Below, piece by piece: positions 1-238 of a DNA stretch of 64,000 bases (position 1 is its first letter; the number at the start of each line of letters is the position of its first letter). The position numbers and the translations under genes were made by a program. The notes under the pieces are model-generated. The model was not told the origin of the DNA. It searched no databases and was given only the letters and a program-made list of their open reading frames with translations. Source of the DNA: Escherichia coli (lineage in GTDB: Bacteria > Pseudomonadota > Gammaproteobacteria > Enterobacterales > Enterobacteriaceae); NCBI RefSeq assembly GCF_048403405.1, contig NZ_CP183129.1; one strand, written 5' to 3'.

Positions 1-238
1 TTGAGTTTTTTTTACCCAAATATAGGCTCTGGATACAGGACTGATTGGTTATTCCAGAGTATGAGAATTATGTAAGAGGGTTGTACCATGGAAGAAAAGA
101 CCTCCCGCTGTAAACGACTGTTTTGTCGACTAATGGTTCGTTTTGGTAAAAGGTTGTCAGTTAGTTTTCAGTTATCGGTTAACTAAAGGTTTAAGGGATG
201 ACAAATGCCATGGAAGGTGATTTTAATAAGGAATAGTT

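Follow-up and report, generated by a model that had tools for sequence, protein, structure and literature searches.

A conserved, unannotated 32-codon gene between a CreR-type mini-CRISPR and casA in the type I-E locus of Escherichia coli

We analysed the upstream flank of casA (cse1/cas8e) at the start of a 64,000-nt stretch of Escherichia coli chromosomal DNA, hereafter the window, which begins within the cysH-hok-cas3-casABCDE12-CRISPR-iap region of a type I-E CRISPR system. According to the list of open reading frames (ORFs), casA occupies positions 239–1801 on the plus strand (ATG at 239, 520 aa) and is the first annotated gene of the operon for the CRISPR-associated complex for antiviral defence (Cascade). 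The preceding positions 1–238 are the downstream half of a 465-bp spacer between cas3 and casA. They contain an unannotated 32-codon gene, which we call ORF32 (plus strand, 88–186, ATG to TAA, MEEKTSRCKRLFCRLMVRFGKRLSVSFQLSVN) and which is conserved across loci, while the upstream half of the spacer carries a degenerate mini-CRISPR and a partial self-target beside an AAG protospacer adjacent motif (PAM). The region is probably a CreR-type self-regulated type I-E leader, a known class of element, with the conserved unannotated 32-codon gene as its new part. Features outside the window are given in the coordinates of the strain 4621 locus (L001), in which 6001 is window position 1 and 6001–13800 is identical base for base to window 1–7800. 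In the identical genomes, RefSeq annotates casA as WP_000283634.1 (L001 6239–7801, that is, window 239–1801).

In one sequence alone ORF32 is unremarkable, as ORFs of at least 32 codons appeared in 16% of shuffles of positions 1–238, and the preliminary description of this flank does not mention it; its significance emerges only when other loci are compared. When the spacer was aligned with that of K. spallanzanii (L007), a single island of conservation was found, which coincides with ORF32, and K. spallanzanii also has a 32-codon ORF at this place (MEEKPNRYKRLFCRLMIRLGNKLSVSFQLSVR). Further copies at the same place were found in Atlantibacter sp. RC6 (L011), in the metagenome contig L044, in L046 and L047–L050 (L046–L050 being contigs with P0001 and P0003) and in L052, a contig from a public sequencing run to which we were led by P0006, the only match of a concatenated 64-aa ORF32 query. 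The copy in a Salmonella-like genome (L051) has a one-base frameshift. Besides E. coli, the ORF32 loci number eight, seven of them intact and the other being L051, the assembly of which is full of broken genes.

The substitutions that separate E. coli and K. spallanzanii in ORF32 fall 8, 4 and 18 times on codon positions 1, 2 and 3, respectively. The proportion of synonymous differences (pS) is saturated at 0.92, against a proportion of nonsynonymous differences (pN) of 0.135, and the other two frames across the gene contain stops. When E. coli is compared with the Klebsiella-type loci, ORF32 is 67–73% identical, against 32–38% for the leader before it and 50–56% for the stretch between ORF32 and casA. 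Nine loci share the start, stop and length of the gene, even where nucleotide identity falls to 55%. Of the 32 residues, 9 do not vary, and all intact members preserve the amphipathic pattern down to 41% identity. A Shine-Dalgarno-like AAGAGGG can be read at 74–80, 7 nt before the ORF32 ATG, and every other ORF32 locus has a purine-rich AAGGA or GGAG 5–8 nt before the ATG. The gene is also strictly syntenic, always lying between the self-target and casA, and in the measured loci it starts 132–156 nt after the PAM and ends 52–60 nt before casA. Judged from these comparisons, ORF32 is clearly under purifying selection as a protein-coding gene.

Independent deletions were found in L025 (K. indica TOUT106, 2850–3000) and in the metagenome contig L045, each removing the target, the predicted promoter and the first 10–12 codons of ORF32 and leaving casA intact. 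The mini-array is retained in L045 and mostly lost in L025. The joint loss of the target and the 5' part of ORF32 fits a toxin, but is weak evidence since the elements are adjacent.

The encoded peptide is cationic (net charge of +6, with 8 basic residues) and amphipathic (helical moment of up to 0.87). It has no transmembrane segment and no hydrophobic helix of the kind found in type I toxins such as Hok, Ldr, Ibs and TisB. A profile search of 1.84 billion representative proteins returned the ORF32 family only, and sequence searches against Pfam, NCBIfam, PADLOC, PHROGs and PDB gave no match. Nothing credible was obtained by tblastn against plasmids and phages, and a literature search did not find the peptide sequence in print. 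With Pfam, PHROG and PADLOC there was no match at E values of up to 10, a KilA C-terminal domain included. Neither the E. coli nor the K. spallanzanii gene has tandem rare codons, the rare codons present being scattered and not shared.

The upstream half of the spacer (L001 5774–5955) has the composition of a CreR-type element. After the cas3 stop, a conserved 10-bp hairpin is followed by two degenerate type I-E repeats that are inverted relative to the cas genes, at L001 5799–5827 (GGGCCTATCCCCGCTGACGCGGGGAACGG, with 6 mismatches to the 29-nt E. coli repeat) and L001 5861–5889 (TGGTTTATCCCTACGTTAATAGGGAAGAA, which keeps the handle TGGTTTAT and a compensated stem), separated by a 33-nt spacer-like sequence. 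On the minus strand the arrangement reads as a mini-CRISPR, with the 5' handle ATAAACCA retained in the first repeat and the Cas6e hairpin in the second. The spacer-like sequence has its first 11 nt (GCAGTAAGAGG) repeated once, some 90 nt further on, at L001 5952..5942 beside the AAG PAM, and the entire partial target extends over L001 5952..5920 with matches to the guide at positions 1–11, 13–14, 16–17 and 21–23. Thus, as in described CreR elements, two repeat-like sequences flank a spacer-like sequence within the cas locus and outside its CRISPR array, and the seed is partially complementary to a site with the canonical AAG PAM.

The same arrangement was present in each related locus obtained, namely L007, L011, L044, L045, L046–L050, L051, L052 and a Chimaeribacter locus (L012) that is without ORF32. 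Downstream of the array, 8 of 8 loci (the frameshifted L051 and seven whose ORF32 is intact) have exactly one PAM-flanked seed match, which arose in no more than 5 of 20 000 shuffles; L052, which was outside this shuffle test, also has one such match. The guide sequences vary between loci, yet guide and target match within each, so that the two covary across Escherichia, Klebsiella, Atlantibacter and the Salmonella-like genome. Position 6 of the guide is mismatched in all loci except E. coli, position 12 is often mismatched, and mismatches are also found past position 12. In type I-F1, positions 6 and 12 have been reported not to contribute to pairing (PMC10120712).

PAM-flanked self-targets are also borne by K-12, whose target we re-found, and by two other long E. 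coli alleles (L042 and L043). These two alleles each have a mini-array of their own and a PAM-flanked target on the plus strand, and in L042 the mismatches within guide positions 1–18 fall exactly at 6, 12 and 18. Downstream of the target of L042 there is an ORF of 46 codons that is equipped with a GAGGA ribosome-binding site, begins with a hydrophobic N-terminus (MLSIFLLQLVLSLLSKRQ...) and is reminiscent of a small membrane toxin. Small cargo genes seem to have a hotspot in the slot between cas3 and casA.

For transcription towards casA, we found a TAnnnT hexamer 20–22 nt after the PAM in all eight loci inspected (L001, L007, L011, L044, L046, L047, L050 and L052). The hexamer is TAATCT in E. 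coli (L001 5977–5982) and a perfect TATAAT in L052, the closest relative, and elsewhere it is TACTAT, TAATAT, TATTAT or TATTTT. A −35 element at the usual spacing would overlap the PAM, where the E. coli sequence is TTTACA, and with an approximate position-weight matrix TTTACA-17-TAATCT (L001 5954–5982) was the best plus-strand match. The candidate −10 element of E. coli sits 19–24 nt upstream of the window. As this conserved element lies 20–22 nt past the PAM, transcription is predicted to start near L001 5989, and the transcript of ORF32 and casA probably begins about 12 nt upstream of window position 1. The preliminary description had placed the Cascade promoter in the roughly 160 bp that follow position 75; we found no support for this placement, given that the sole positionally conserved −10 element is upstream of the window and that a strict consensus scan finds no promoter inside. 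A strict terminator scan of L001, L052 and L047 likewise gave nothing on the plus strand.

Positions 1–87 would accordingly be, on the basis of the conserved −10 element, the untranslated 5' leader of the ORF32-casA transcript. Within this leader a conserved stem is formed at 26–60, in which GCTCTGGA (26–33) pairs with TCCAGAGT (53–60) around a loop whose length ranges from 19 to 31 nt between species. In an alignment of seven loci (A3), 4 of its 8 pairs are changed on both sides and 93% of cells are paired, and the stem is also present in the single-sequence fold. Behind ORF32, the spacer to casA (187–238, 52–60 nt in all loci) contains a short hairpin or motif, NCCA-NGGA-TGGN (205–220), which is weak here (ATGCCA/AGGTGA, 4 pairs including 2 G-U); in A3 this helix is 93% paired with a double change in 1 pair. 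When the pairing partners of both helices together were shifted by 1–3 columns as a control, only 27–46% remained paired. Unrelated spacer alleles and other species (L002, L005, L006, L010, L042 and L043) have the motif as well, 25–35 nt ahead of the casA start, and in L012 it lies farther upstream; compensatory changes occur in the fourth stem pair, and in the short E. coli allele a T-run comes after the motif. It is followed by the casA Shine-Dalgarno sequence AAGGA (228–232), 6 nt before the ATG, which is conserved as AAGGAA in A3. As a whole, the fold of window 1–260 was not more stable than shuffles (z = +1.46). An Rfam scan of L001 2400–6400, which covers window 1–400, detected sok upstream of cas3 only and nothing in the spacer. 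This sok hit (111.7 bits) belongs to a hok/sok type I toxin-antitoxin locus between cysH and cas3 (L001 2584–2878), where a Hok/Gef protein is annotated.

In the Klebsiella-type loci, the minus strand carries TTGATA-18-TATGAT, a near-consensus promoter that is directed at the mini-array and lies just upstream of ORF32 (L007 2497..2468 and L047 1484..1455); the E. coli allele has no good equivalent of this promoter. RNA transcribed from it would run antisense to the leader of ORF32 and might serve as the precursor of the mini-array RNA.

The upstream limit of the region is set by cas3. The preliminary description had noted an open frame 1 between position 1 and a TAA at 73–75 and had considered this stretch either the tail of cas3 or intergenic sequence. 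The opening itself was confirmed by translation (LSFFYPNIGSGYRTDWLFQSMRIM followed by the stop, with the casA ATG at 239), but the cas3 stop codon (TGA) lies at L001 5771–5773, 228 nt before window position 1 and in a different frame from window frame 1. In L001, Cas3 ends in ...EGLIGKVD (...CGYSAREGLIGKVD), and the orthologous proteins end correspondingly in the short-allele E. coli (...EGLTGKVG, ...CGYSAMEGLTGKVG), K. spallanzanii (...CGYSAHEGLIGTVD) and K. indica (...CGYSMHEGLIGKAD). Since cas3 thus stops upstream at an orthologous C-terminus, all of 1–238 is downstream of cas3, so that of the two options the intergenic one stood, positions 1–75 holding no cas3 sequence, and the case that the description had allowed for, a cas3 stop outside the window, is the one seen in the identical genomes. 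In mononucleotide shuffles of 1–238, frame 1 remained without a stop for 24 codons or more in 13.7% of cases, and one or another of the three frames did so in 37.7%; the frame-1 open stretch (1–75, plus strand) is a chance feature that carries no signal. A Cas3 C-terminal tail encoded by positions 1–75 would have nothing but the open frame from the window edge in its favour, and with the conserved end of the protein located upstream in the other frame we regard it as virtually impossible. The cas3 gene of strain 4621 is annotated as a pseudogene through one extra base at codon 7 (L001 3093). We rejected this +1 frameshift as a cause of a displaced cas3 stop, as it is far from the 3' end; beyond it the frame runs uninterrupted to the normal stop, and initiation at a downstream start might thus still yield nearly full-length Cas3.

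We then examined how widespread this spacer is among 5426 complete E. coli genomes. By megablast with window 1–1800 as the query, this casA type was present in 2458 genomes, but identity over the whole query was limited to six: TUM14771, GN02461, 4621, MS 69-1, TUM1226 and OX030728. Among the next-best matches listed, similarity begins only at window position 264, within casA codon 9. A sensitive BLAST search found the full 465-bp spacer (L001 5774–6238) in these six genomes only. The common spacer of the same cas type is 97 bp long (L002, about 2424 genomes), and two other long alleles are also rare, one with a 450-bp spacer (L042, 3501–3950, 7 of the genomes) and one with a 429-bp spacer (L043, 3501–3929, 3 of the genomes). 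As its last ~60 nt are shared with the ends of the L042 and L043 spacers, the 97-bp allele looks like a deletion derivative. The 414-bp K-12 spacer resembles the 465-bp spacer only in 26 nt of the degenerate second repeat (88% identity). Beyond this repeat remnant no homology of the 465-bp spacer to the K-12 spacer or to the 97-bp allele was found, and a distant BLAST search with it matched no K-12-type genome. The cas3-casA spacer of E. coli therefore occurs in at least four forms, the 97-bp one and three different ones bearing mini-arrays. The G+C content of window 1–238 is 37%, compared with 53% in the whole window.

From these observations, we consider it probable that positions 1–238 are the transcribed leader of a CreR-type self-regulated Cascade operon that includes a conserved 32-codon gene. 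The minus-strand RNA of the mini-array, predicted to span L001 5889–5799 and to be trimmed to about 60 nt with ATAAACCA as its 5' handle, would resemble a CRISPR RNA (crRNA) and be loaded into Cascade, which would then bind the AAG-flanked self-target without cleaving it, because the complementarity is only partial. Bound Cascade would occlude the promoter, whose predicted −35 region overlaps the PAM and whose predicted −10 element lies 21 nt after it. The transcript would consist of an 87-nt untranslated leader with a stem, ORF32 (88–186) and a 52-nt spacer with the casA ribosome-binding site, and when repression lifts ORF32 would be translated from its own ribosome-binding site, together with casA or just ahead of it. 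Such derepression would follow, for instance, if Cascade were lost, if crRNAs titrated it or if anti-CRISPRs blocked it. As to the function of the peptide, our preferred guess by analogy with CreT and CreP is a small cationic amphipathic effector by which growth would be slowed upon failure of Cascade; we give about the same chance to a non-toxic peptide with an accessory or regulatory role in Cascade expression. The more specific proposal that ORF32 is the cargo of a type I-E CreR circuit, arresting growth or aborting infection upon Cascade loss or anti-CRISPR block, is a tentative one that we hold to be possible and no better than that.

Cascade-guided repression of the casA promoter by a mini-array has been shown experimentally at the Salmonella type I-E locus (bioRxiv 10.1101/2023.03.10.532045), and such mini-arrays have been predicted for E. 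coli type I-E and for about 19% of bacterial type I-E loci (PMC10120712). As it is demonstrated in Salmonella and predicted in E. coli, the class of mini-arrays to which CreR belongs is not new. The Salmonella enterica CreR described by Liu et al. in the first of these studies is likewise a degenerate two-repeat mini-CRISPR between cas3 and casA, where one repeat keeps the part for the 5' handle and the other the hairpin part, and where the seed matches an AAG-PAM site beside the predicted casA promoter. It differs in that its target is about 140 bp from casA, against 283 bp for the element described here, and in that it was considered 'standalone', no cargo gene being seen, whereas here the interval from the target to casA holds a conserved 32-codon gene. 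With the type I-E cas3-cas8e mini-arrays of Shmakov et al. (PMC10120712), our element shares its position, its orientation for transcription away from casA towards cas3, the AAG PAM and the tolerance of a mismatch at each sixth position. The same study describes cargo genes, and also the shuffling of genes located between the mini-array and the cas genes. In contrast to the K-12 element reported there, the present spacer is unrelated except for 26 nt of the second repeat, and the cargo here is an unannotated 32-aa ORF rather than a recognizable toxin-antitoxin pair.

The arrangement of a small gene next to a degenerate mini-CRISPR within a cas operon, with the guide target at the promoter of the gene, which here is a predicted one, is also that of CreTA (PMC8501985, PMC9458426). 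CreT, however, acts as RNA, its tandem rare codons sequestering a rare tRNA, while ORF32 is conserved in its amino acids and has no such codons. CrePA of the Acinetobacter type I-F system (bioRxiv 10.1101/2024.01.05.574328) resembles the present element in having a protein-coding cargo under a CreA-like guide, which is expressed when the effector is inhibited, but CreP contains a phage KilA C-terminal domain and blocks FtsZ, whereas ORF32 has 32 aa and no domain match and belongs to a type I-E locus. ORF32 further resembles the type I toxin-antitoxin peptides of the Hok/Sok kind in being a very small ORF behind a long structured 5' leader, and in the Klebsiella-type loci a strong antisense promoter faces that leader as well. 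The differences from Hok/Sok are the lack of a transmembrane segment and, in the E. coli allele, of a detectable antisense promoter and of an Rfam match.

Three other readings of positions 1–238 were weighed against the CreR-type leader with a protein-coding ORF32. Were the region plain non-coding regulatory DNA, ORF32 would be a chance ORF whose conservation reflects DNA or RNA signals such as regulator sites and mRNA structure; the frequency of ORFs of this length in shuffles, its missing annotation in E. coli and the lack of a family match are in keeping with this. Signals of this kind do not readily account for a start, stop and length kept in nine diverged loci, a substitution pattern of 8/4/18 over the codon positions with synonymous saturation and a pN of 0.135, stops in the other frames, or a ribosome-binding motif before each ATG, and we therefore consider a non-coding region improbable. 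ORF32 could instead be a cis-acting leader peptide that tunes casA by preventing premature termination or by opening the casA ribosome-binding site, as its location in the leader, 52 nt before casA and flanked by conserved RNA stems, would suggest. Leader peptides usually conserve a short motif rather than their whole sequence. In ORF32 the invariant residues and the amphipathic pattern extend over the peptide down to 41% identity, no overlap or coupling with the casA start was found, and no terminator-like structure follows the gene, all of which makes a leader peptide rather unlikely.

The operative Cascade promoter might, alternatively, lie inside 1–238 under H-NS and LeuO control as in K-12, with the mini-array being a decaying relic. 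The 37% G+C content of the region is what H-NS-bound DNA typically shows, the K-12 cas3-casA spacer itself contains a Pcas silenced by H-NS (as cited in a passage of PMC10120712), and weak promoter-like hexamers do occur in the window. The spacer is nevertheless unrelated to that of K-12 save for the 26-nt repeat remnant, the hexamers are not conserved in relatives, and covariation of guide and target across loci is not expected of a relic, so that we judge this possibility to be about as doubtful as the leader peptide. H-NS control and CreR control could both apply.

Several observations weigh against the self-regulated leader with ORF32 as its cargo. The −35 region is poor in most loci, and the strict consensus scan found no plus-strand promoter in the spacers of E. 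coli (L001), L052 or L047. A second promoter inside the window is possible from the weak hexamers TTGAGT-16-TAGGCT (1–28) and ATGACA-18-TTTAAT (198–227). For the mini-array of the E. coli allele a promoter was sought and none was found, and the hairpin of the repeat from which the 5' handle must come is degenerate, which leaves Cas6e processing putative. The ORF32 family is small, consisting of nine loci of which one is frameshifted in an error-rich assembly; the Atlantibacter copy is the only one to have been named, as a 'hypothetical protein' (NCBI), and the E. coli copy has never been called as a gene. With a mean Eisenberg hydrophobicity of −0.24, the peptide is unlike the hydrophobic classical small toxins, and its AlphaFold2 model, a single helix over residues 3–31 with a predicted local distance difference test score (pLDDT) of 83.5, says little because the peptide has only 32 residues. 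A strong toxin co-transcribed with casA would, moreover, be costly at each induction of the operon.

Beyond the casA flank, the CRISPR array follows cas2 at window 6100–6496, as annotated in an identical genome at L001 12100–12496, and is followed by iap (6516–7553, minus strand) and then cysD/N/C. In the searches for related loci, CasA relatives with 36–40% identity were found in metagenome bins of Methanosarcinales and other archaea, and relatives with 42–44% identity in bee-gut Gilliamella (L026–L035, L038 and L041). A contig from a metagenome bin labelled 'Collinsella sp.' (L004) carries a casA 96% identical to that of E. coli together with the short E. coli spacer, and is probably a binning contaminant.

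One form of the cas3-casA spacer of E. coli thus contains a conserved micro-gene that no annotation pipeline calls in this species, indicating that genes of 30–40 codons can hide in the leaders of cas operons. Type I-E CreR elements have been described as being without an associated toxin; ORF32, which sits exactly in the interval from the CreR target to casA, offers a concrete candidate. If ORF32 proved to be the cargo of the CreR element, it would be a type I-E counterpart of CreTA and CrePA with a new, very small protein toxin, and some 'standalone' CreR loci would in fact be guarded by unannotated micro-genes. Should ORF32 turn out to be toxic or to modulate Cascade, the view of how type I-E systems regulate themselves and persist during the evolution of enterobacteria would change.
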